Source: a virus
Lineage: Duplodnaviria; Caudoviricetes
Direction: 5' to 3' (one strand)
DNA: 64,000 nucleotides
Virus record (IMG/VR): IMGVR_UViG_3300021255_000041
Location: 561-64,560 of that record
Part shown: positions 4,453-52,900 of the stretch, piece by piece
How the letters are laid out: every line of letters starts with the position of its first letter
Numbering within the stretch: the stretch's first letter is position 1
The notes under the pieces: generated by a model
The model's input: the letters and a program-made list of their open reading frames with translations, nothing else
Told to the model about the DNA's origin: nothing
Databases searched by the model: none
Translations under genes and position numbers: made by a program

Positions 4453-4478
4453 TCATAAAAGGATGTGTAAAACACACG
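4453..4478 (-). promoter_or_regulatory. Phage promoter motif copy 1
   Basis: CG TGTGTTT TACA CATCCTT TTATGA. Confidence 0.7.
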
Positions 4479-6109: not shown

Positions 6110-6532
6110 TTAATGCTTCCACGGACAGGTATCATTCTTTGTCCGGAAAGTTGGTCCAAGCATAAGCTGGGACTCGTCACCATAGTGTATGGCATTGTGG
6201 GTATTATGAGTTGTGCTGATCAAGTATTCAGGATTCATCAGCATCTCACTTCTTGTCTCCAAATCCCTTTGGGATATCGGGTTCATATGATGGATAAGAA
6301 TCTTTCCAAATATCTGATAATCTTCAATTCCCAAATCACAGCCGTTGTCCCGCAAGATCACTTGATTTCGAATCGTTCGCCATTCAAGTGACTTATAGAA
6401 CTGCTGATTCATGTACCGATCGAATCCAAACGTCTCTCTGCCGACGGATCCGCTCAGTTTCAGATACTCAAAGCGTTCTTTGAACGTCGGAAGTGTTATG
6501 AGCTCAGAATACGTTCTAATCTTCGTACTCAT
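6110..6532 (-). CDS. HNH endonuclease (packaging-associated)
   Basis: RDNGCDLG, IHHMNPI, THNAIH motifs; adjacent to the small terminase candidate. Confidence 0.8.
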   Translation of the reverse strand: MSTKIRTYSELITLPTFKERFEYLKLSGSVGRETFGFDRYMNQQFYKSLEWRTIRNQVILRDNGCDLGIEDYQIFGKILIHHMNPISQRDLETRSEMLMNPEYLISTTHNTHNAIHYGDESQLMLGPTFRTKNDTCPWKH

Positions 6533-6863
6533 AGTATTCTTCCTCGTTGGTTTTCCCGCTGTATCGCTTCATCGCCGCTATAACCGCCATATACTGCTCT
6601 TCGGTTCTTCGTGCAGCCTCCAGTGTTTCGGTTTTAGCTCTGAGTAATTTCACTTCTTCTTCGAGTTTCTCCCGTTCTCGGCGTTCCCGCATCGATCCGA
6701 GCTTGAGATAGTGCGTGATCACCTGTGATGAAGCCGTTCCTTCAAGTAATTGTCGCTCTGCCAGGTCAACCGCGAGCGAAATCATCTTGTTTTCCTGTGC
6801 TTCAGGAGTGAGCGCCGGCCTGGTCTTACGAGAAGGGCCGACATTCTTCGTAGTTTTCTTCAT
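6516..6863 (-). CDS. Putative terminase small subunit
   Basis: 115 aa, first gene of the late operon, coiled-coil C-terminus; assignment positional. Confidence 0.5.
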   Translation of the reverse strand: MKKTTKNVGPSRKTRPALTPEAQENKMISLAVDLAERQLLEGTASSQVITHYLKLGSMRERREREKLEEEVKLLRAKTETLEAARRTEEQYMAVIAAMKRYSGKTNEEEYYEYED

Positions 6864-6910
6864 TAAGCACCCCGCTCTTAAGACTTTTCTTATAGTTTTG
6901 CTGTACTTTT

Positions 6911-7012
6911 ACAGTACTTAAATAGACCCGCAAACAGAAGCAACCACACCAAAGTCGAAAGGAGGAAAGCACTTATCGAACATACAGCTTTGCGGGCCTG
7001 TTTAAACACTGC
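6911..7012 (-). ncRNA. Long-stem RNA hairpin with anti-RBS loop (candidate trans-acting sRNA)
   Basis: 24-bp stem (6911-6934 with 6989-7012) with 4 G-U and 1 mismatch on the minus strand; 54-nt loop contains the reverse complement of the 32340-32371 mRNA leader. Confidence 0.65.
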
Positions 7013-7040
7013 AAATATCTTAAAAACATTTCATCAAATT

Positions 7041-7110
7041 TTCCCCCGGAGAATTTTTAAAGACCGGGGCGATCATAGAGGGGGTGGTTGTTTTTGAGAC
7101 CCCCCTCCCC
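7041..7110. other. Candidate cos/genome-end region
   Basis: Non-coding G/C tracts and inverted repeat GAGGGGG (7078-7084)/CCCCCTC (7101-7107) between the last early gene and terS. Confidence 0.4.
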
Positions 7111-7177
7111 TATGTAATCGACCAGTTACGGTGTTGCTTCGAGATCAACACTCACAGTGTCAGCGAATTTCGAGCAA

Positions 7178-7444
7178 TTATTGGGAATAAAACTCTTCAT
7201 CAGTCAATTTCTTCTTAACCTTTTTGTAGATATTCAAGAAGTCATATTTGATGATTTCGTCAATTGCGCGCTCAATTTCTTCATTATTCTCTTCATCTGT
7301 GAATTGACTTGAAGTTTTAGCAATTCTTGCTAAGTAGCCACAAGAGTTGTATCCTTTTTCGACATCATACAAGAACCATTCGCGAAAGTTATCGAACGGA
7401 TCAAACGGATTATCGAAAGTCGTTAAAGCTGCAACTTCATGCAT
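7178..7444 (-). CDS. Hypothetical protein downstream of RNAP
   Basis: 88 aa with RBS, LTTFDNPFDPF motif. Confidence 0.75.
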   Translation of the reverse strand: MHEVAALTTFDNPFDPFDNFREWFLYDVEKGYNSCGYLARIAKTSSQFTDEENNEEIERAIDEIIKYDFLNIYKKVKKKLTDEEFYSQ

Positions 7445-7462
7445 AAACGTTTTCTCCTTTCT

Positions 7463-10234
7463 TTAACTTTCTTTGTATTTGTTTACAGTTGACACTGAAA
7501 CACCTAAAGCATCAGCAATTTCCTGATTTGTGTAACCAGAAGCTTTCATTGCCTGGAGCTTATTTATTTTAGCTGGGGTCATTGTTTTTGCCGTACGAGG
7601 TGTAGCTCTTTTTCTAAGATCATCACCGTCAACATACTTAATAATCTGACGCAATTTGTTTTCTGATATTGCACCAGACTGAATTGCTTCCCATTCACGA
7701 TCAGAAAGCTTAATCGGCTGTCTTAGTGCGCCGACTCTGATTCGAGCAGAAGTCAGTTCACGTTGAGCAATCTTCTTAAGTTCTTTCTTTTCGATAGCAG
7801 GATTGTCCTGTTTTATAGCATCAACACGGGCTTTAGTCATGATCTGGGCGGTGCGCTCTCTAGGGGCGTTTTTAAGTGCCAGGTTGAGCCGGGAGTCAAG
7901 AGAATCTGCCTCTTTCTTATAAACTTTATTAGCAGAGGGGGAGTATTCTATACGCCCGGTATTGATCATCTCTTTGCGGGCCGAGTTTGCCATAGCCTTA
8001 AGGTTATTGGCATAGTTAGCATAGGCCAGCTCCACAGGGGTACGCCGGTTGGATACAAGGGTCATAGCGTCCGATGTCTCCATCATAGCGTTACTCTTCT
8101 GAGTCCTGGTAATTACTTTGCCTTTCTTATTGACATATGTCAGATTGTCAGCTGTTTTCCAGGAAACTGAGCCGTCCTCATTAATAATGGGGCTACCCTG
8201 TCTCTTAGGTACTGACCTCTGTGACTTGGCACGGGAGATGATAGTGGCGGCACCTTCGTGATACTTACCGTCTTCCCCTATATGTCCCTGATACTTTCTC
8301 TTAAGCTCAGCAATGTGGTTCTCCTTCTCGCTGCGCTTATAGTCCAGGTTATGCTTGTATGCATCAATAACTACCATATTGTGCATTGTCGCCCAGGCAA
8401 GTTCCTTTTCGGTCGCACCAAACTGGGTCATATCGCTCAGAAGGTTCGACACAGTGCCCATCTCTTTCTGAACAGCACCCTTGTTCATTCTCTTGTAGGG
8501 AACCGAGGTGCTGCCTGGACCGTATTTGTCTTTGGCATCGAAGCCCTCTAAGTCTTTGAGAGGCGGCGTCGACTGGACTTTAACTCTGTCCGATAATGGT
8601 ATGACCATAACGGTATCACCGTCAAAGTCAGCTCCGGACAGACGATCCGCAGTAGCCTTCGTAATACCGATCGCATCTTTCGGGTTCGTACCAATAACAT
8701 CTTTGCCTTCCTGCACTTTGTTGTTAACTTTGCAGATAGGGATCTGATAAGTACCCTCATGCGGGAATCTGACAAGAGCTACTCTTTCGCCGTCTCTGTA
8801 GTTAGGCGCATAGACCTCGTTATCGTTGATTGTGGTCAAAGGAAGGATGACCTGATAACTCTGACGAGGAAGTGACGCACCCTGCAGATGGACCGCAGCA
8901 GAATCGCAGTCATCCGCAAAGGACTTAAGAAGCTCTTTCTTGACCGTCGGATTGGTCAGCGATCTGATCTCCTCAAGTTCCATCTTTTTATCCGCAATGG
9001 ACAGATTGAGCTGGTTATTAATAAGCTTCATATCCTGCTTAGCAAGGAACTGTGATGGCAGCTTATTCTTCCAGTCCCCCCAGTCTCCTTCATCGCCACG
9101 TTTATTGATCAGTGAAAGGTGCTCTTTACCGTCGTCTCCTTCATAATAGCTCTGACCGCCTACTTCTTTGATCAACGACCCAAATGGGTTCTTAGGGTCG
9201 TCTGTAATCTGCTTCAATACCGAATGGTCTTTCGGTCCAAGAGCGGGAGTTCCTTTCTTCTTGTTGGTGTTAAACATGACGTCCACGCCATCAGGAAGGT
9301 TGTCGGAATATATAGCCATGCCCTTGAGGTAATGAGTACCATCGACCAGGATGCGAACCTGTGCGTAATGACTGTCTCCGAGAGAAAGGTCTTTTACACC
9401 TCTACGGATCTCGATCACGCCATCCTTCGCTTCACCACCATCTTCGGCGTAGCGAATAGCCAGTCGCTTTGAGTCCATGCTTGCAGGATATTCAAAGGCT
9501 TTTCTGATTTCCCGTCCATTGTCGACAAGGATCTTGTCGTAGTCCTTAAGCGAATGTACGTCTTCGAAGTTGTAAATGTCTTTATGCTGCGTACCGGGAG
9601 GACATAACACTTTAAGGTTGGTCTGTCTTCCGGGATTGGTTGCCTGAGGTACGCCACCGCCATAGACCTCGTATCCTTCGGCCTTGAGCAATTCAAGAGC
9701 CTGGTCGAATTTCTCTTTGGATACATTGCACTCACGCTCGACACCAGCACCAACATCGATCATACCTTTCTTATTCACAGCTTCTCTGAGATAATCGGCA
9801 GTGACCTTTGCGCTGTCCATGCGTGCTTCTGCATTCTCATTGAGAAGCGATCTGATGGAGGATTCACTGTTATAACCCATTTCTTCTGCGATCTGGGTTC
9901 GCGTTAAGCCTTTTTCCTGAAGCTCTTTTGCTTTGGCAACTTTGGCTGATCTTTCCTCGTTTTTAGCAAGGGCATAGTAAGCTCTGAACTGAGTGGTTGA
10001 TAAATTCAAAGACTTGGCAATGGCTGTATCACCTTTGAAGGTTTCGCCAGTATCAGGATCCGTCCAGGTGAATCCTTCTTTACGCATCTTCTTGACACGA
10101 CTCACGAAATCGCCGCTATGCTGATTGGGATTTTCACCGCTGCCCAATGGATATCTGCCTGATCCACGTCCAGGTGCTCCGTCCATTTTACTGACACCGT
10201 AGTGCATTAAGATGTCTTCAGCCACTTTGTTCAT
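7463..10234 (-). CDS. Single-subunit two-barrel (double-psi) RNA polymerase with HTH domains
   Basis: GADFDGD at 8615-8629 (D536-D540), R489FPH, AQVRILVDGTHYLKG (RdRP-type QxR..KG); HTHs at N- and C-termini. Confidence 0.8.
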   Translation of the reverse strand: MNKVAEDILMHYGVSKMDGAPGRGSGRYPLGSGENPNQHSGDFVSRVKKMRKEGFTWTDPDTGETFKGDTAIAKSLNLSTTQFRAYYALAKNEERSAKVAKAKELQEKGLTRTQIAEEMGYNSESSIRSLLNENAEARMDSAKVTADYLREAVNKKGMIDVGAGVERECNVSKEKFDQALELLKAEGYEVYGGGVPQATNPGRQTNLKVLCPPGTQHKDIYNFEDVHSLKDYDKILVDNGREIRKAFEYPASMDSKRLAIRYAEDGGEAKDGVIEIRRGVKDLSLGDSHYAQVRILVDGTHYLKGMAIYSDNLPDGVDVMFNTNKKKGTPALGPKDHSVLKQITDDPKNPFGSLIKEVGGQSYYEGDDGKEHLSLINKRGDEGDWGDWKNKLPSQFLAKQDMKLINNQLNLSIADKKMELEEIRSLTNPTVKKELLKSFADDCDSAAVHLQGASLPRQSYQVILPLTTINDNEVYAPNYRDGERVALVRFPHEGTYQIPICKVNNKVQEGKDVIGTNPKDAIGITKATADRLSGADFDGDTVMVIPLSDRVKVQSTPPLKDLEGFDAKDKYGPGSTSVPYKRMNKGAVQKEMGTVSNLLSDMTQFGATEKELAWATMHNMVVIDAYKHNLDYKRSEKENHIAELKRKYQGHIGEDGKYHEGAATIISRAKSQRSVPKRQGSPIINEDGSVSWKTADNLTYVNKKGKVITRTQKSNAMMETSDAMTLVSNRRTPVELAYANYANNLKAMANSARKEMINTGRIEYSPSANKVYKKEADSLDSRLNLALKNAPRERTAQIMTKARVDAIKQDNPAIEKKELKKIAQRELTSARIRVGALRQPIKLSDREWEAIQSGAISENKLRQIIKYVDGDDLRKRATPRTAKTMTPAKINKLQAMKASGYTNQEIADALGVSVSTVNKYKES

Positions 10235-13671: not shown

Positions 13672-13938
13672 TCAAGCTCTTTCTCCATCAACAGCCTCCA
13701 GTTCACTGTAATATCTCCTGTTCCAGGCATCGGCAACAACATCGCACGCCTCCTGAGACTTCGATGAGCAGCCATAATCCGAGATTTTTACCCTCCCGGA
13801 CCGTGCGTTACACACTGTACACCTCACAAAGGCCACTTTCGTGGTCTTCCCATCGATGAAAGCCCGGTGTGACTTCTCCAGATACGCTCTCCCCCCGCAA
13901 AACGGACATTTTTTCAGTCTCTTGATCGTAATTCTCAT
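13672..13938 (-). CDS. Lar-like restriction alleviation protein
   Basis: LKKCPFCGG...VRCTVCNA...AWNRR signature. Confidence 0.7.
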   Translation of the reverse strand: MRITIKRLKKCPFCGGRAYLEKSHRAFIDGKTTKVAFVRCTVCNARSGRVKISDYGCSSKSQEACDVVADAWNRRYYSELEAVDGERA

Positions 13939-14105
13939 ACCAGCAAAGCTCCTTTCTTCCCTGCATTACCCTGTTTCAGACTGTTTTTATCCCTTTCCGC
14001 CTTCTTTTTGCGAAGATATAAGTCCCGATCAGCCCTTATAATCGCCACTGCAGCTGTCGGATCGCTATAACCATACTGATTTCTCCAAATTCCAGGCATT
14101 ATCAT
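13935..14105 (-). CDS. 56-aa hypothetical protein (not in ORF track)
   Basis: MIMPGIWRNQYGYSDPTAAVA...; stop overlaps the Lar start (ATGA). Confidence 0.55.
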   Translation of the reverse strand: MIMPGIWRNQYGYSDPTAAVAIIRADRDLYLRKKKAERDKNSLKQGNAGKKGALLV

Positions 14106-14512
14106 GTGCTTTCCTCCTTATTCGTCCATTTTATCGATGTATATTACCGCCAGAACCACAGTCAAAATCACTCCAAACATAATTCCACTGCAAAAAATGA
14201 ACATTCCGCTCACTGAAATCACCTCCCATCGTCCACAAGATTCAAAATTTGCTTCTTCAGCTCGTTAACTTCCTCATTTTTCGAGATATAAGCCATCAAA
14301 ATGAAGGGTACACAGAGCTTGAAATCAGGATCATCTCTCTCGCACCACCCACTCTGGCTCGGACAAACCTGTTTGTACGGACATTTCACGCTCATCACCC
14401 CCGATCAAGTACAATCCAAGCGGCAAAAGCACCAAACTCATGGTCCCATCACGCAAAATTGCAATAAAAAAGAGCGCCAGCGCTACCAGCGCGACGCCCA
14501 TGAGACGAATTT

Positions 14513-23012: not shown

Positions 23013-25760
23013 CTAATATTGCTCGCCTGTGGCGAGGTTTGTATAAATCAATTTTGGATGTTTTTCATTTCCAAATATAATTTTGGTTGTGAGAGTGTTG
23101 GTGGTATCGTTCGGAGTTCCGCCAGCCAATTCGGCCAAAATCTTTCTTGCCACAAAGTCGGCTTTCCTTTCATTAAACACCGCTTCGGTTGCCAGCACGT
23201 CGTTATCACAGTACTCAGCTACCTTCGGCCATAATTCCTCAGGCACGGGCTGATCCCAAGGTAAACCAAGCTCCTGATGATGGATACCCAGTTCAATTTC
23301 CCATTTCTTGAGAGACTGCTTCTTTGAACAGAAGTCGTATACATCCGTATAGCTGATGTTATATGCCTCGCCAAAGAACGGCTTATCCTTATCAGAGTCA
23401 CTGTTAATGATTTTACTGGACAGTTCGTAAAGCTGATAATTGCTGTAGCCGATCAGCCTTGCGTACAGAATATGATTGTCGTACTTCCTGCAGTTAAAAC
23501 CCACAAGGTTAAAACGAATCAGCTCCTCAATCTCCGCCGGACCCGGGTTGATCATCCGAACGACAGGCTTCCCCTCCCCGGCAATTTTCCAGTTGACAAG
23601 GAACAGGTTCGGAAATACCTCAACGTCATAAAAGACAAGGTCGGCCGTTGCATCGTCAACGTTCTCGGCTTCCTTCTTCGATTTGAAGTGCATTTTCTTC
23701 ATGGCGTCGAGGCAATAATCAGCATGGTGTGTACTGCCGGCTGCAAATGAGAATATATCACCCTGCATGTCAGTCACATCATACTCAAGATCACTCTTGT
23801 ACGCGTCATCAAGAATTTTCACAATAAAATCGATGGAAGGTTTCGTACCAGGATGGACTTCCTTATTCAGGTTTTTCAAAAGGATCCGCCGAAGTCCCGC
23901 TTCGCTTTTTATTCTGTCACCATTTACCACAATATCTCCTTTCTTCTTTTTTGGCAGACCGGAGCTTATGGTTGCAATCGGCATCCGGTTGCATTTTGAC
24001 AGCCTTCTCCGAAGAGAAGCTTTTCCTGAAAAGACCTTAATCTCAATGCCTGGCGCATACAGACGTTCAAGCATCTCCACATCGCCTGTGTAAATATAAT
24101 GCAGATGAATGCCTGCTCCGCCCTTGCTGATCTCGGCATAAGTCGGTGGCCACTTATTCGCCTCAGCCAGATTCAGTTCAAGGGACTTGTTACCGTTCTC
24201 GTCCTTCAGATCAAAGTCAATAACCACATGGTTGTCAGGCAGCAATACGTAATGCACAAGCGATGTATCAATGTCAGACAACTTTGTCCGTACATTCTCC
24301 CATTTCCAACGAGGCTTATCCTCTTCGTCGGCAAGCTGTGCAATACAATCCGCGTATTCCTTGTCGAAGATAGAGTCAGTCGCCTCGAAAATAATGCTGT
24401 ACGGTTTTTCTTCTTCCTCCTGCTCCGGCTCATCGGCTGTCCGATTCTCGAACTTATCCGCTCTGAACCCGATATACCGGTTTCTGACCCGCGTACCATC
24501 CTCCAAAACATCTCGATCCTTAAACTCCTGGAAGTAGTTCTTCAGTTCTTCCTTGAACGGGCGTAAAGAATATGGATAGGGCACTTTTGCATCATCGCAA
24601 TACGTCTTATACATCTCCCATGCGGCCTTCAAAGTAGTCGCGTCTTCTTTCTTGAAGAAATAATAGGAGTCGATGATAAAATTGTAGAAGTCGTTGGAGG
24701 CACCCATCATGTTGACGGGGATATAACTGTCATACCGATCAGGTTTTGCTTTGTATACATCCAGACAATGCTTTGCAATAGCACCCAACTCAAAGTCAAT
24801 ATTCTTCATAATCCGGTGGTATTCCTTCGCATTGAGTTTTTCGCCGGTCGGTGACACGTCAATAAGTCGTCTGATCAGACCAGACTTTGCATCTGTAATC
24901 TTCACCGGCTTATTCGTACCCATGAAAAGGAAACACTTAAAACGGTTTGAATATAATGACTTGTGTTTTTCGTTGATCGTCATTTCTTCGTGAGAGACGA
25001 GGCTGTTTAAACGGGTGTTATCCTCAATTCTCGACAGGTCACCATCGTGCTGGATCGCCACAAGCGGATTCATTTTAAATGGCTCCAACGCAAACGCATC
25101 ATGCGCCGACCCAATACTCTTCGCATCGAAGACGGTGTAATATCCTTCGAACAGCTTCTGGATAATATTAAGAACCGTTGACTTACCGGTTCCCATCGCT
25201 CCATAAAAGACCATAAACTTCTGGATATACTTCGAGTCCCCGGAGACGATCGCCCCAATAGCCCATTCAATTTTTTGTCTTTCTTCGGGAGAATATAAAA
25301 CAGACATGAGACGATCGTAGCTGGAGATGTCGCCATCTTCCAAAGGATAAGGAAGGCGTTTGCTGGCATAATCCTCTTTGCGAGGTTTGGTGTTTGAGAA
25401 TATAAGATTTTCGTCGAGCATATGAAACGAGTCGCGAAGCTGTCTCTGACAATACTTGTGCCACACATCTATCATGCCGGTTCCGGAGTCCCACATATGC
25501 AGGACCCGGATGTTATCGGCTTTTCGCTCAAGTTTTTCTCTGTTTTCCTCGACGTATTTGTCGAGCTCATGGTCTATCAGCTGAAGGGCGGCCCCCTCGT
25601 CAGTAGACCACAATCCGAGTTCCTCAATCCAGACAGCATAAAAGTCACCGCCTCGTATCATGAGGTCTGTGCTTTTCCTGACTGTCGGGATGATGAATTT
25701 CGGATAGACCTCTATCACGTCTTTTGACTTTCGTGTAGAAATCATCAAAAAATCCATCAT
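23013..25760 (-). CDS. SF3 helicase - primase-like - PolB 3'-5' exonuclease fusion
   Basis: FYGAMGTGKST, GTNKP; DFDLKD and SKGGAGIHLHY (AEP-like); YDVEVF, GFNCRKYD, YCDNDV (ExoI-III). Confidence 0.8.
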   Translation of the reverse strand: MMDFLMISTRKSKDVIEVYPKFIIPTVRKSTDLMIRGGDFYAVWIEELGLWSTDEGAALQLIDHELDKYVEENREKLERKADNIRVLHMWDSGTGMIDVWHKYCQRQLRDSFHMLDENLIFSNTKPRKEDYASKRLPYPLEDGDISSYDRLMSVLYSPEERQKIEWAIGAIVSGDSKYIQKFMVFYGAMGTGKSTVLNIIQKLFEGYYTVFDAKSIGSAHDAFALEPFKMNPLVAIQHDGDLSRIEDNTRLNSLVSHEEMTINEKHKSLYSNRFKCFLFMGTNKPVKITDAKSGLIRRLIDVSPTGEKLNAKEYHRIMKNIDFELGAIAKHCLDVYKAKPDRYDSYIPVNMMGASNDFYNFIIDSYYFFKKEDATTLKAAWEMYKTYCDDAKVPYPYSLRPFKEELKNYFQEFKDRDVLEDGTRVRNRYIGFRADKFENRTADEPEQEEEEKPYSIIFEATDSIFDKEYADCIAQLADEEDKPRWKWENVRTKLSDIDTSLVHYVLLPDNHVVIDFDLKDENGNKSLELNLAEANKWPPTYAEISKGGAGIHLHYIYTGDVEMLERLYAPGIEIKVFSGKASLRRRLSKCNRMPIATISSGLPKKKKGDIVVNGDRIKSEAGLRRILLKNLNKEVHPGTKPSIDFIVKILDDAYKSDLEYDVTDMQGDIFSFAAGSTHHADYCLDAMKKMHFKSKKEAENVDDATADLVFYDVEVFPNLFLVNWKIAGEGKPVVRMINPGPAEIEELIRFNLVGFNCRKYDNHILYARLIGYSNYQLYELSSKIINSDSDKDKPFFGEAYNISYTDVYDFCSKKQSLKKWEIELGIHHQELGLPWDQPVPEELWPKVAEYCDNDVLATEAVFNERKADFVARKILAELAGGTPNDTTNTLTTKIIFGNEKHPKLIYTNLATGEQY

Positions 25761-31709: not shown

Positions 31710-32339
31710 TCATAACACAAGGTGAAATTTTTGCGAATGAAAACTGAAACTGTAAATATGATTGCTGAGCACGTCGGATGGATCGAGAGTCTTGTTCACT
31801 TCCTCGACTATGTCTCTCAGAAACGCTGGATTCTCAATGTCCTCCGCCGGCACAAACATCAGCTCATGAATGCTTGAGGGAATCACGTAATACTCTCCTG
31901 CCGGTAGACCCGAGATATACTCCGGATAAAGCATCAATACGCCTCCGTTATACATATCTTTTGAACCGACTACGTAAATCGGCGTAGACGAATCCATGTC
32001 AAACGGCAAGAATACGTTGTTTACACTGTAGAGTATCTCATCCAGCAAACGCACACAAACATCCATGTTTCGAATGGTGTTCGTGTATGCCATATCATAG
32101 AGCAAATCGAAGCTGACTCCCAGGAACTCCAGAGCATCGTTCTTCACTGTCGCCACGCACTTTGACCCATCAGGAAAATCGCCAAAGTTAATCTTGATGA
32201 TTACGGCGATATCCGGGAATGGTAGCAGGCGATGCGGTACCTCTTTGAGCATCTCAACGTTGTTGTCATAGTTTACGAGTTGCAAAAACGTTCTACCGGG
32301 AATATCCTCCTTTCGAATTTTGGTTAATCCTTCACTCAT
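31710..32339 (-). CDS. DUF5688-like protein; putative sRNA target
   Basis: YYVIPSSIHEL, VEEVN, VLSNHIY signature; leader complementary to the 6942-6973 hairpin loop. Confidence 0.75.
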   Translation of the reverse strand: MSEGLTKIRKEDIPGRTFLQLVNYDNNVEMLKEVPHRLLPFPDIAVIIKINFGDFPDGSKCVATVKNDALEFLGVSFDLLYDMAYTNTIRNMDVCVRLLDEILYSVNNVFLPFDMDSSTPIYVVGSKDMYNGGVLMLYPEYISGLPAGEYYVIPSSIHELMFVPAEDIENPAFLRDIVEEVNKTLDPSDVLSNHIYSFSFHSQKFHLVL

Positions 32340-32369
32340 AGTACTTTCCTCCTTTCGACTTTGGTGTGG

Positions 32370-32525
32370 TTAATATATACATTCATGCAGTAATACTGCA
32401 TTGCGCTTTGAGTTATACTCGGCTGACACAGCCTCATGCTCGTCACCGATCAATTCGTGTACCAATAAAACGATCGCGTCGCCAGGCATATCCGCGATCA
32501 GTTCTTTCAATTCATCAACCGTCAT
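32370..32525 (-). CDS. 51-aa hypothetical protein (not in ORF track)
   Basis: MTVDELKELIADMPGDA...; RBS GGAGGT. Confidence 0.6.
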   Translation of the reverse strand: MTVDELKELIADMPGDAIVLLVHELIGDEHEAVSAEYNSKRNAVLLHECIY

Positions 32526-32537
32526 TTTCATACCTCC

Positions 32538-33176
32538 TTAACTAGCGAGCGATAAACCAAGCTCAGCGAGTTTCGACACGATTTCCTCGTAACTCCGCTG
32601 TCCGAGATTCCGAATACCAATGACTTCGCCAGGTCTGAGCTGTATAAGATCACCTATCGTCTCGATACCGCGTCTTGTGAGGCAGTTGTAAGTTCTTACA
32701 GACAGGTTTAACTCGTCGATACCAGATTCACTGATGTCTGGTTCCGGTATAAGCTCTACGACTTCGCCAAGCAGATATTCAAGTCGTTCGTTTTCCTTTT
32801 TCAGTTTCTCGTTTTCGACACGTAGGTCGCAGGCTGCCTGCATGGTGTCGAAAGTCCATTTAATACGTCTTCTCGGATGTCTAAGCTTGCGAAGCGCCTT
32901 GGCCTGTATTTGCTGAATGCGTCCTCTTGATATGCCAAATTCTTTTCCGGTGCGCTCTAACGTAAAGCCCTCTTCAAAACGGTAAAAAAGCACCTTTTGC
33001 TCCCTTTCAGTCAAATCCGACAAAGTCTCAAGAAACCCTGGAACATATGCTTCATATACCTCGTTTCGCATGTCTTCGTCCGGAAGATTGAACGGGTTGC
33101 CTATCACAGCGGCAATTAAGTTGTACGGATAAACTTTTAAAATGTCGACTTTGATTGTAGGTTGTTTGCGGCTCAT
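32538..33176 (-). CDS. Sigma70 region-4 / RNAP alpha-CTD fusion protein
   Basis: [11 protein letters not shown]...[30 protein letters not shown] (sigma4); [22 protein letters not shown]...[14 protein letters not shown] (alphaCTD). Confidence 0.85.
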
Positions 33177-49926: not shown

Positions 49927-52900
49927 GCCCTCCTTTCTATTCGTGCTGCTCTGACTAACGTACGGATAGCCTCTGTGATGTTGCTACCGTCGTCGTAAGT
50001 AATACCGTTAATCGTGTTGTACGTGTTTCCGGAAGGCTGAAGCTGCCTGCCGAGAGCGTCGATCGCAGATATTACGTCATCATTCGTTGCATTTTGATTT
50101 CTGTTCGCCATCGCCGTATTGATCGCATTGATCCCGCCTGTAAGACCGATTGTACGTCTTGCAGTGAGCATACTGTCGATCGCTCCGACTCCCGAACGAA
50201 CGTTGCTGAGATCCAGGACAGGACTGACTGTCGGCTGAATGTCGAAACCGCTTGATACCAGATCAGCGATGTTACCCATGGATCTTGCCAGACCGCTTTT
50301 AGCGGACAGTGCAACATCCTTACCGGCGTTGTACGACAGCGGAATATAGTCTGCGAGAGCATTCACGAATCCCTCACCCGAGTAACTACCGATCTTGTAG
50401 AATACTTTTGAAGGTGAGTTGATGTCGAGAACTCTCTGTGCCGCGTTAACCGCTGCCTGAGCCACAGCTGCTCCCCAGATTTCTGCTTTGTAGGTGTTCG
50501 CGCTGATACCGGAAATGAAACCGGATACAACGTAAGAACCTGCATTGTAGAAATAGGAGTAGTATCCATAGATACTCGTGAGAGCTGCGGAAAGAGCTGT
50601 TGAGAAGGAGTATTTCAGCCTTAAATCGTAACTGTCGATGCCGGCTTTGAGTCTTTCGGACAATTTTGCGCCGGCTGCTTCGAAATCTTTACTTTTGTTT
50701 GTAACCTTTTTCAACGTCGAAGACATCAGTTTACCCATGGCGTCTTTCACAGCCTTGAGCTTTTTCTCATTGCTTAATCCATTCTTCAGATTACTGATGA
50801 GAACTTTGCCCGCATCTTCAAATTGTGTTTTCTCGCCAACGAGAGCGTTAGCTGCAGCAGTAACTAGGTCCTGCGCCGCAAGCTCCACATCTTCATCGGA
50901 CGTATCGATGGTATCAACAAAGTCATTAATGGCTGTTGCGATCTCGGTCAGTTTTGTCGAATCGATCGAGCTGAGCTTATCCCAATCAGCAGAAGTGAGC
51001 GAATTGAGAATATCATCGAATTTGCTCATATCTTCGGGATTTGTATTCTTGAGACGATTCGCCATCAAGACGAGCGATTTGGCACTTTCAGAAATGCTAG
51101 CCAAACGTTCTGTGTTGATTTCGACATCAGAAAATTCTTTAAGCTTACCACCAAACGAAACAATGGCTTCGCCAAACTTGGTCAGATCGCCCTTGGCTAA
51201 GAAGCCATCGTAATTCACATCGCCAACCGCTTTTTGCAATTCGGCAATCATGTTTGCAGCTGCTCCTGCCGTTTCGATCTTTGTAGCGTCCATATCCGAA
51301 CCGAGATTATCCGAATATGCTTTTAGTGCAGTTCCCAATGCAGGAAGCTGCTTAGCGAAGTTTGTAATCTTATCGTCGTTGCCAGACAACCATCCAAGAA
51401 TTCCGCCATCGGGAATCTCATTGCTTGCCAAATTGGCCAACATTGATGCCATTTTCCCTGAGAGTTCGACTTGATCGTCGGTGATTGTCATATCCGCCAT
51501 AGAATCGGCAAACGTCGACAACCCCTCGGCTAAAGACGGAAGCTGTTCTGCGAACACTGAGATTTTATCGCTATTACCCTTCAGCCAGCCAATCACGCCA
51601 CCCTCTGGTATTTCGTCGCCCGCCAAAGAAGCGAGCATCGATGCCATATTAATTGAAGCGTTGATTTTATCCTGATCAAATGTCGTGGTATTGATAAGAG
51701 CCGCGTAGGAGGACAAGCCCGTAGCCAATGGGACTAACTGTTTTCCAAACTCTGATAAATCCGACTCACCCTCTATAAATCCCAACACCCCACCCTTTTT
51801 CAAGGACTCTTCTCCAGCGAGCGAAGCAAGTAAAGATGCGAGATTAATAGAGGCATCAATTTTATCCTGGTCAAACGTTGTGGTATTTATAAGCATTGCA
51901 TAAGACGTTAGCCCCATAGCAAGCGGGACTAAATCTTTTCCGAATTCCGATAAATCACTTTCTCCCTTGATAAAGCCTAAAACGCCTCCGGTTTTCAGGT
52001 TATCGTCCCCGGCCAAGGAAGCAAGTAACGAAGCCAGATTAATGGATGCATCGATTTTATCAGGATCAAATGTGGTCGTATTTATCAATTCGGCATACGA
52101 GGCAAGCCCAGTGGCTAAAGTTGGAAGCTGTTCGCCGAATTTATCCAACCCGATGCTTTCCCCTTTGATAAAGCCCATTACGCCGCCGGTTTTAAGGTCT
52201 TCACTTCCGGCTAATGTGGCCAGTAAAGATGCTAAATTAGTCGAAGCGTCAATCTTTGTCGTGTCGTTCAAGCTTTCTCCGAGATTATCAGCATACGCGG
52301 TCAACGCACTACCGAGTTCCGGTAAAGTTTTCGCGAATGAGGAAACCGAGCTCTCTCCCGTTATCCATCCGGCGATACCTTCAAGCAAATCCGCAGCCGT
52401 TATTTTGAGTATTGCCGTCGCCAAATCTCCAACAGAAGAAAATACCTCCGGCCCCATCGCTGATATACCGTCGAAAAACGGTTGGGCATTGGTCATAAAA
52501 TCAGCAAGATGTGTTCCGATTTGCGGTAATGTCGAGGTAGCTCCTTCTGCTATCCCACCGATAATATTCCCAATGAAACTGCCAATGGCATGACCGATGA
52601 GATCGGCGAAATTACTTCCTTCGTCGACAAGCCACGTTATTCCTGGTATTTGTGCAAGCGCTCCAAGCGCCAGGAATATAGCCCCTAACTCTGCAATCAC
52701 GATACCCAAACCAAGGATTCCGACCATTGCTCCCGGAATAAACCCTGCTAAAAGGGACATCGCAACCATCAAACCAGCCAATGCACCAATACCCAAAACT
52801 ATTTCGGTCAATGCATTTGTGTCAATTTCTCCCAGCGCATCAGTAATCCCTTTGAAAATAGATCCAAACAGATTCATAACAGACTGAATGATCATTGGGA

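Follow-up and report, generated by a model that had tools for sequence, protein, structure and literature searches.

A conserved hairpin beside the cos site of phages related to Lactococcus phage 1706 and FP_oengus, in one phage with a loop complementary to the leader of a distant gene

The window analysed here (a stretch of 64,000 nt of a gut phage, taken from an IMG/VR viral record of 64,560 bp) carries all of its genes on the minus strand. The record has terminal repeats and is an assembly of the circular type; the true ends of the genome are internal to it. They lie between two conserved groups of genes. On one side is the last operon before cos (7178..10234, minus strand), consisting of the gene of a two-barrel YonO-like RNA polymerase (7463-10234; 923 aa, phrog_4291 at E 0) and an 88-aa gene (7178-7444; phrog_4303); this polymerase operon ends at the same place in 250 cultured phages. 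On the other side is the first late gene (6516..6863, minus strand), which encodes a 115-aa protein (phrog_4259) and is gene 1 or 2 of many cultured relatives. Genes for an HNH endonuclease and a connector protein come after it, with that of the large terminase at a greater distance downstream. These flanking genes are common to more than 500 contigs and about 250 cultured genomes; PDB sequence searches with the two flanking small proteins gave no match. A leader hairpin (6908..7015, minus strand), the subject of this report, starts at a distance of 47 nt from the left cos end, on its inner side, and precedes the first late gene.

The genome ends were located by comparison with relatives. Relatives of the 115-aa protein were found in more than 500 viral contigs, and the ends of 80 of these were compared. 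Most of the 80 end 35-260 nt upstream of the 115-aa gene, and approximately 26 start at the motif C[CT]T[AT]AAAAATTCTCCGGGGG. Complete relatives end on the opposite side with a G+C-rich hairpin, junction-spanning contigs add about 9 bases between the two ends, and the determined ends of Streptomyces phage TieDye, Arthrobacter phage CastorTray and Lactococcus phage 1706 start with the same left-end motif. Because the contig starts, the relatives' ends, the extra junction bases and the determined ends all agree, the region 7043-7110 was assigned as the cos site. In the window, the conserved left-end motif CTTTAAAAATTCTCCGGGGG, recognised from the shared starts of related contigs, occupies 7043..7062 (minus strand), which places the left end at 7062 and the right end at 7072. 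The putative 9-nt cohesive overhang between them, CGCCCCGGT (7063..7071, minus strand), was positioned by setting relatives' ends against junction-spanning contigs. The right genome end has a G+C-rich hairpin (7079..7110, minus strand), which relatives conserve at their own right ends; lacking a U tract, it is not an intrinsic terminator. In two of the IMG/VR records of relatives (L010:1-14 and L021:1-8), Illumina adapter remnants (..CTCTTCCGATCT) are fused to the left end; this is a contamination of the records and, at the same time, useful proof of a physical DNA end.

Read on the minus strand, the leader hairpin consists of a 5' arm (7015-6989), a loop of 54 nt (6988-6935) and a 3' arm (6934-6908). 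Under symmetric scoring, its 27 stem positions comprise 22 Watson-Crick pairs, four G.T and one A.C mismatch, and the loop holds the 32-nt antisense segment described below. An earlier note on this DNA had proposed a 54-nt loop closed by a stem with four G-U pairs on the minus strand, and just such a structure was found, with a stem of 27 positions. RNAfold yielded -34 kcal/mol for the minus strand, at a z of only -2.0 in comparison to shuffles; a fold predicted from one sequence is weak evidence by itself, and it is the comparative data that carry weight. The CUCC motif of the window loop has a predicted unpaired probability of 0.71.

Several other identities of this segment were considered and rejected. 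A 48-aa minus-strand ORF (6826-6972) overlaps the hairpin and has no RBS. A coding use of the RBS copy on the plus strand is contradicted by the lack of a start codon after it and of a conserved ORF behind the antisense Shine-Dalgarno sequence in relatives. With its 54-nt loop, no U tract and no terminator-like site in 6400-7600, the hairpin is not an intrinsic terminator either. A search of Rfam 15 with positions 6700-7300 gave a best E of 0.51, every match being far below its gathering score, and seven related loci gave only a spurious match to a miRNA precursor (28.5 bits, compared to a gathering score of 100).

The earlier note had taken the hairpin for a singular device, a view that did not survive comparison: hundreds of phages have this cos-proximal element, and in most of them the loop has only a 13-18-nt generic anti-RBS core. 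At the same place, 51 distinct relatives carry a stem of 23-45 bp, its sequence varying from phage to phage. Family loops are 22-160 nt in length (the 54 nt of the window loop being typical) and carry CTCCTTTC, some of them with two or three degenerate copies in which CUCC(U) only is kept. In an alignment of 40 sequences, CTCC.T is invariant and CTCCTTTC nearly so; the near-invariant core of the family loops is CUCCUUUC, of which the window has the version CCUCCUUUC. RNAalifold predicted 26 pairs on this alignment, 25 of them with compensatory change. Pairing was observed in 95.8% of the stem cells, compared to 32-50% when the partners were slid, and double changes in 239 cells, compared to 31-51 in the controls; none of 500 shuffles reached the observed values. 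Across the family, the motif has a predicted unpaired probability of 0.78, versus 0.49 for the loop interior, and it is often located at the tip of a small inner hairpin.

A covariance model (R1) built from the hairpin alignment detected held-out loci (up to 92 bits) as well as the locus of CastorTray (29 bits). In the window, which was part of the training set, it found a single copy, scoring 72.2 bits on the minus strand versus 25.7 on the plus strand. The same hairpin architecture was recognised by eye in Lactococcus phage 1706 and in FP_oengus. One relative (L065:2327-2580) has two different hairpin copies in tandem just inside cos, each with a stem and an anti-SD loop of its own. Judged from these comparisons, the window hairpin is one copy of a conserved cos-proximal element of 1706/oengus-like phages. 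The family hairpin matches no Rfam family and is an undescribed, widely conserved RNA element.

The imperfect pairs of the stem carry information on the strand that is under selection, as a transition in a duplex repeat gives G.T or A.C equally often. When all mismatch types were treated alike, the non-Watson-Crick stem positions across the family were 168 G.T, 27 A.C and 64 others, and some stem columns keep G.U as their commonest pair across lineages. From the sense-strand base skews (G>C, A>T), a G.T:A.C ratio of about 1.1 would be expected; a mutational strand bias was rejected as the source of the excess, since the skews are too small and T is depleted. As the G.T excess does not come from the skews, selection acts on the gene-sense strand as a single strand, which most simply means RNA, and the strand symmetry expected of a duplex-DNA packaging site is absent from these counts. 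The assignment of the structure to the minus, transcribed strand in the earlier note is in line with this excess and with the preference of the covariance model for the sense strand. The hairpin beside cos is a real and conserved structured element of the sense strand, and we consider it highly probable that it works as RNA.

In the window, the hairpin loop has a long counterpart in a distant leader. On the plus strand, 6942-6973 and 32340-32371 are reverse complements at 31 of 32 positions. An inverted-repeat search of the window returned these two arms (32 nt, 97% complementary) as second in arm length among the inverted pairs listed and as the best pair by far in identity, the other eight reaching 71-90%. 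BLAST of the hairpin region against the whole 64,560-bp record found 32340-32371 as the sole second place (E 7.6e-10). The probability of a 31/32 inverted match in a 64-kb window is estimated at about 1e-8, and a chance origin is ruled out by the 97% complementarity together with the BLAST E value. The arms are separated by 25,366 bp in the window and by 38 kb along the linear genome, and both belong to the gene-sense minus strand, in different operons.

The 32-nt loop segment (6942..6973, minus strand) contains the core CCUCCUUUC as the complement of plus-strand 6957-6965. Its counterpart (32340..32371, minus strand) is the whole intergenic gap upstream of a gene of the DUF5688 family, including the Shine-Dalgarno sequence, of which GGAGG is the complement of plus-strand 32348-32352. 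This arm stops one base short of the ATG at 32339, and at its other end it includes two bases of the TAA (32370-32372) of an upstream 53-aa ORF. With the minus strand as the RNA on both sides, the lone mismatch, G in the loop and U in the target, forms a G-U pair. A second site of 12 nt, TCCTCCTTTCGA (32305..32316, minus strand), lies inside the coding sequence of the target and is complementary to the loop core. The description of this pair in the earlier note was accurate throughout: repeat search and BLAST agree on the reverse complementarity at 31 of 32 positions, the sole difference leaves the RNA duplex fully paired, the coordinates cover the entire DUF5688 intergenic region and Shine-Dalgarno sequence up to the base before the ATG, and the additional 12-nt match is present.

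The DUF5688 gene (31710..32339, minus strand) encodes 209 aa corresponding to the C-terminal two thirds of the Pfam model (E 2.6e-36), and it comes third in an operon that is preceded by a promoter copy at ~33238. The first gene of this operon (32538-33176) encodes a fusion of sigma-70 region 4 with an RNA polymerase alpha C-terminal domain (Pfam E 1.4e-17 and 4.7e-21). Along the linear genome, the hairpin and the DUF5688 target are separated by many cassettes of promoters and terminators. One protein homologue (97%) of the target is known elsewhere. A protein search of five complete relatives revealed no DUF5688 homologue, nor did a Pfam-model search of 10 further relatives, in which the control also gave no match; no homologues with their leaders were found in viral, genome or metagenome contigs. 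A 22-mer from the match was likewise found in no other sequence of the viral, genome and metagenome collections, and no relative in an 18-genome comparison has a comparable 32-nt inverted pair. As the relatives lack a homologue of the target and the collections lack another copy of the 22-mer, the long match is, on these searches, lineage-specific.

The predicted duplex between the loop and the DUF5688 leader has an energy of -60.7 kcal/mol, compared to a mean of -19.7 kcal/mol (sd 5.9) for 155 leaders, and the estimated opening costs of the two sides are approximately 5.5 and 4.5 kcal/mol. The next-best leader reaches -32.5 kcal/mol; this second predicted target, AAGGAGGAAAGCAC (14106..14119, minus strand), precedes a 56-aa gene (13935-14105) and is a perfect complement of 14 nt.

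In five complete relatives the loops match only the common RBS form TGAAAGGAGAAAA, over 13-18 nt and about equally in each other's genomes, and most relatives have only such generic 13-18-nt matches, which score about as well against other genomes. Nevertheless, in an 18-genome matrix of loop antisense matches the loops tend to match their own genome best, with a mean rank of the own genome of 4.1 out of 17 versus 8.5 expected. The own genome was the strict top for the loops of the window (score 29, versus 14 for the best other genome), G011 (20 versus 14), phage 1706 (21 versus 16), the G003 lineage (18 versus 17) and CastorTray (15 versus 13), host composition being a partial confounder in the rows of phage 1706 and CastorTray.

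The extended matches involve different sequences. The phage 1706 loop matches the orf27 leader over 24 nt with one mismatch, ending 2 nt before the ATG, and further matches the leaders of orf52 (21 nt) and orf47 (14 nt); orf47 is annotated as 'putative positive regulator of sigma'. The loop of G011 matches a 5' UTR over 29 nt with three mismatches and the leader of a HAD-like gene over 22 nt running through the ATG. The leader of this same gene is matched in G003/G007, over 18 nt and ending at the ATG, and it is the top loop target in both of these lineages. The HAD-like gene sites are at 52016 in G003, 22989 in G007 and 48778 in G011 (loci L093, L112 and L127), and the N-terminus of the protein has IIAVDFDGTLCENKWPEIG; no homologue of the gene was detected in the window by tblastn. 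The flanks of the HAD-like leader differ between G003/G007 and G011, and the loops differ in the same way. Such a parallel change is covariation between lineages among the genomes compared, and no other comparative result supports a real loop-leader interaction as well.

Nearly all top loop matches are situated in the early half of the genome and in leaders, the exception being G002, in which the match is inside a long ORF. On average, however, early-half and late-half leaders show equal binding to the loops (14 genomes). A general anti-SD sponge directed against early genes was rejected on these grounds, as it would also strike the phage's own late genes. The suggestion of the earlier note that the core CCUCCUUUC might broadly strike AGGAGG leaders gains nothing from the data, and the equal binding means that the conserved core alone cannot explain a selective early shut-off. 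The family-wide function of the hairpin may thus be something other than early shut-off. A helicase-primase 'leader' was also rejected as a common target of the loops, being coding sequence (LKGEK) inside a long ORF. In that ORF (23013-25760), at ~23930, the SD-like GAAAGGAG is conserved in frame ahead of an ATG or GTG, as it is in G001-G005 at ~42-44 kb (protein LKGEK-M/V-VNF); the site could be an internal start that gives a shorter helicase-primase isoform.

A repeated promoter-like motif, CGC[GA]AAAA..ACA-N7-TTATG[AG], occurs on the minus strand of the window (e.g., at 4453, 11230, 17768 and 33238) and is conserved in position and sequence in five complete relatives (G001-G005). It is found in the early region and ahead of the polymerase operon, and may represent the promoter class of the phage's two-barrel RNA polymerase. 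It was never found between cos and gene 1, either in the window or in the five relatives, and the 3' arm of the hairpin, considered as a promoter of this family, does not match it. Neither a sigma-70-like promoter nor an intrinsic terminator was detected in 6400-7600, from the 88-aa gene to gene 1; with no terminator there, nothing blocks transcription into the hairpin. A hairpin transcript would most likely arise from polymerase-operon transcription that reads through the joined cos site, an alternative being an unrecognised promoter in the conserved end motif.

The best explanation of these observations, to which we give slightly less than an even chance, is that the hairpin is an antisense RNA against specific early leaders, in this phage that of DUF5688. 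The structured RNA would be read from the gene-sense minus strand, where the late block of packaging and head genes starts. The large loop would be kept open by the long stem, with the pyrimidine-rich anti-RBS core CUCCUUUC left single-stranded, and in the window the loop has become complementary to the entire 32-nt leader of the early-region DUF5688 gene. Once transcribed, it could pair with the DUF5688 mRNA over the stretch that begins at the upstream ORF's stop codon and ends just ahead of the AUG, burying the Shine-Dalgarno sequence; the resulting 32-bp RNA duplex is of the kind cut by RNase III, and the early protein would no longer be made. The trans-acting antisense shut-off put forward in the earlier note is in part supported, by the minus-strand structure, the predicted accessibility of the loop, the -60.7 kcal/mol duplex and the matches in other lineages, while transcription at late times is a part of it that we only infer. 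An additional, wider scenario, possible although doubtful, is that the whole family constitutes a re-targetable phage antisense RNA, in which the loop serves as a cassette that captures the leader of an early gene to be silenced. The hairpin would then be made only after the cos ends have joined, as the polymerase operon is read through, or after the onset of late transcription, and its targets would be DUF5688 here, the HAD-like gene in other lineages, and orf27 and orf52 in Lactococcus phage 1706.

The antisense reading shares its RNA-level evidence with a somewhat unlikely rival, according to which the sense-strand RNA has another, family-wide job and the 32-nt identity is a tolerated inverted patch, left by gene conversion from the leader and seeded on the microhomology between SD and anti-SD sequences. 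At the head of the late mRNA, the RNA could be a site of RNase III processing or a 5' stabiliser; it could control in cis how the first late genes are translated; or it could be a decoy, imitating the 16S rRNA 3' tail (CCUCCUUUC) for a binding factor or nuclease. RNase III cuts stems of 27-45 bp, the size of those seen here; most relatives carry the generic core only, and binding energies do not differ between early and late leaders. Furthermore, the 54 nt of the window loop are typical of the family, and therefore the patch must have replaced sequence rather than added to it, and leader modules are copied by recombination, the same leader being present twice in the G011 genome. However, the patch ends at the stop codon on one side and at the start codon on the other, a rare outcome for random conversion end points, and at least four lineages, their sequences differing, show extended matches of the loop to its own genome, for the most part in leaders of the early region. 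Control of the first late gene in cis is not favoured by the poor pairing of its SD in the window, GCGGGGUG, with the loop, and a 32-bp inverted repeat, which invites harmful inversions, should be lost unless it is useful.

Position is an argument for a different, unlikely alternative, a DNA packaging element similar to lambda cosB, in which the arms would bind the small terminase or another packaging protein astride a bent spacer, the spacer motif would be a protein site that resembles an anti-SD sequence by accident, and the 32-nt match would be a neutral patch. With the cos cleavage site on one side and the first gene on the other, the hairpin takes exactly the position between them, 47 nt from the left end, and it stays beside that end, not beside the 115-aa gene homologue, in G013, G014 and phage 1706, where extra genes (384-1,200 nt) are inserted between the two (loci L036, L050 and L103, respectively). 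The arms carry a partly conserved TTTAAA, and half-sites of one protein would also co-vary between lineages, so that compensatory counts alone are not decisive. On the other hand, the order is reversed in CastorTray, where the hairpin is 399 nt from the end and beside the gene-1 homologue, and Streptomyces phage TieDye keeps the cos motif and has no such hairpin. Moreover, the ratio of 168 G.T to 27 A.C is not expected of duplex DNA and is unexplained by base skews, the retention of G.U as the commonest 'pair' in some columns is equally unexpected, complementarity extends along the whole 23-45 bp arm, far past a protein half-site, and loops with two or three degenerate CUCC copies resemble SD complements rather than one fixed protein site. 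The strand asymmetry and the whole-arm complementarity argue against packaging DNA being the sole role. It is very improbable that the 32-bp arms are the crossover sites of an invertible 25-kb segment, or a bare inverted-duplication scar unlinked to the hairpin. They do form an inverted repeat 25,366 bp apart; yet all genes are on one strand, and an inversion would leave the replication and polymerase genes facing opposite to the rest and shift their position relative to cos. Such a pair is absent from the relatives, one arm is precisely in the functional loop while the other precisely fills one intergenic leader, and no invertase was identified (no dedicated search was made).

Should the antisense reading be true, the hairpin would be an undescribed regulatory RNA in one of the commonest siphovirus groups of gut, dairy and soil, the relatives of Lactococcus phage 1706, Faecalibacterium phage FP_oengus and phages of Arthrobacter, Gordonia and Rhodococcus. 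The window offers the clearest natural pointer to how the hairpin may work, as its loop is extended to a full 32-nt anti-leader of one gene; the DUF5688 leader and the loop are a directly testable regulator-target pair, with the orf27 and orf52 leaders of phage 1706 as the culturable equivalent. If the re-targetable reading were correct, circularisation or late transcription would be coupled to the post-transcriptional shut-off of chosen early genes in hundreds of phages of Firmicutes and Actinobacteria. For annotation, the hairpin marks the physical left end (cos) of these genomes, and its long inverted repeat is easily mistaken for a terminator, an origin or the end of a mobile element. Even if the 32-nt match is a by-product, a sense-strand RNA structure that displays an exact copy of the 16S anti-SD sequence beside cos needs explaining.

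The order of genes at the locus, namely the gene of a single-chain two-barrel RNA polymerase, then a small one, a long stretch of non-coding DNA and finally late genes, resembles that of phage SPbeta, in which YonO starts the late operon after yonO-yonN and a non-coding RNA missing from the annotation is reported at the YonO start site upstream of yonK (PMC5467207). Unlike in the window, the corresponding gap in SPbeta is 1.7 kb, and the polymerases are too distant for tblastn. The yonN-yonK gap of SPbeta (L106, 9154-10834, minus strand) contains several long hairpins; the one just before yonK, with 22-nt arms and a CAUCUCCUUUAU loop, is a weak analogue only.

In lambda, cosB contains terminase-binding R sites and an IHF site between cosN and Nu1. 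The hairpin occupies the same place in the genome, with inverted elements that enclose some 50 bp of spacer just inside the end from which packaging proceeds; it differs from cosB in that G.T is favoured on the sense strand only, complementarity spans the whole arm and the hairpin loop has copies of an SD complement. In Gram-positive bacteria, RsaE/RoxS and the RNAIII of S. aureus have accessible C/U-rich loops that pair with the Shine-Dalgarno region and block initiation, often with cleavage by RNase III. An accessible pyrimidine-rich loop facing a Shine-Dalgarno region is common to these RNAs and the hairpin, which is nevertheless phage-encoded, has a 23-45-bp stem beside cos and is situated in or at the head of an operon leader, not in a free-standing gene; in contrast to their short seed, the window hairpin has a 32-nt duplex of the perfect type, and no Rfam model matched it. 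Phages too have antisense RNAs that pair over or near an RBS and time expression, such as P22 sar (ant), lambda OOP (cII) and P1/P7 c4 (icd-ant). The first two are cis-antisense RNAs from the strand opposite the target, OOP acting with RNase III, and c4 is cut out of an operon leader and acts within its own operon. The hairpin, read as RNA, shares with them a predicted pairing over the RBS of another phage gene. Unlike theirs, the partners in the window belong to different operons of the same strand, with 25 kb between them (38 kb along the linear genome); unlike the target of c4, DUF5688 is not downstream in the same operon, being located in that behind the ~33238 promoter. What the hairpin has in common with RBS-blocking RNAs in general is complementarity running over the SD to the start codon of a distant gene, at 31 of 32 positions plus one G-U pair.
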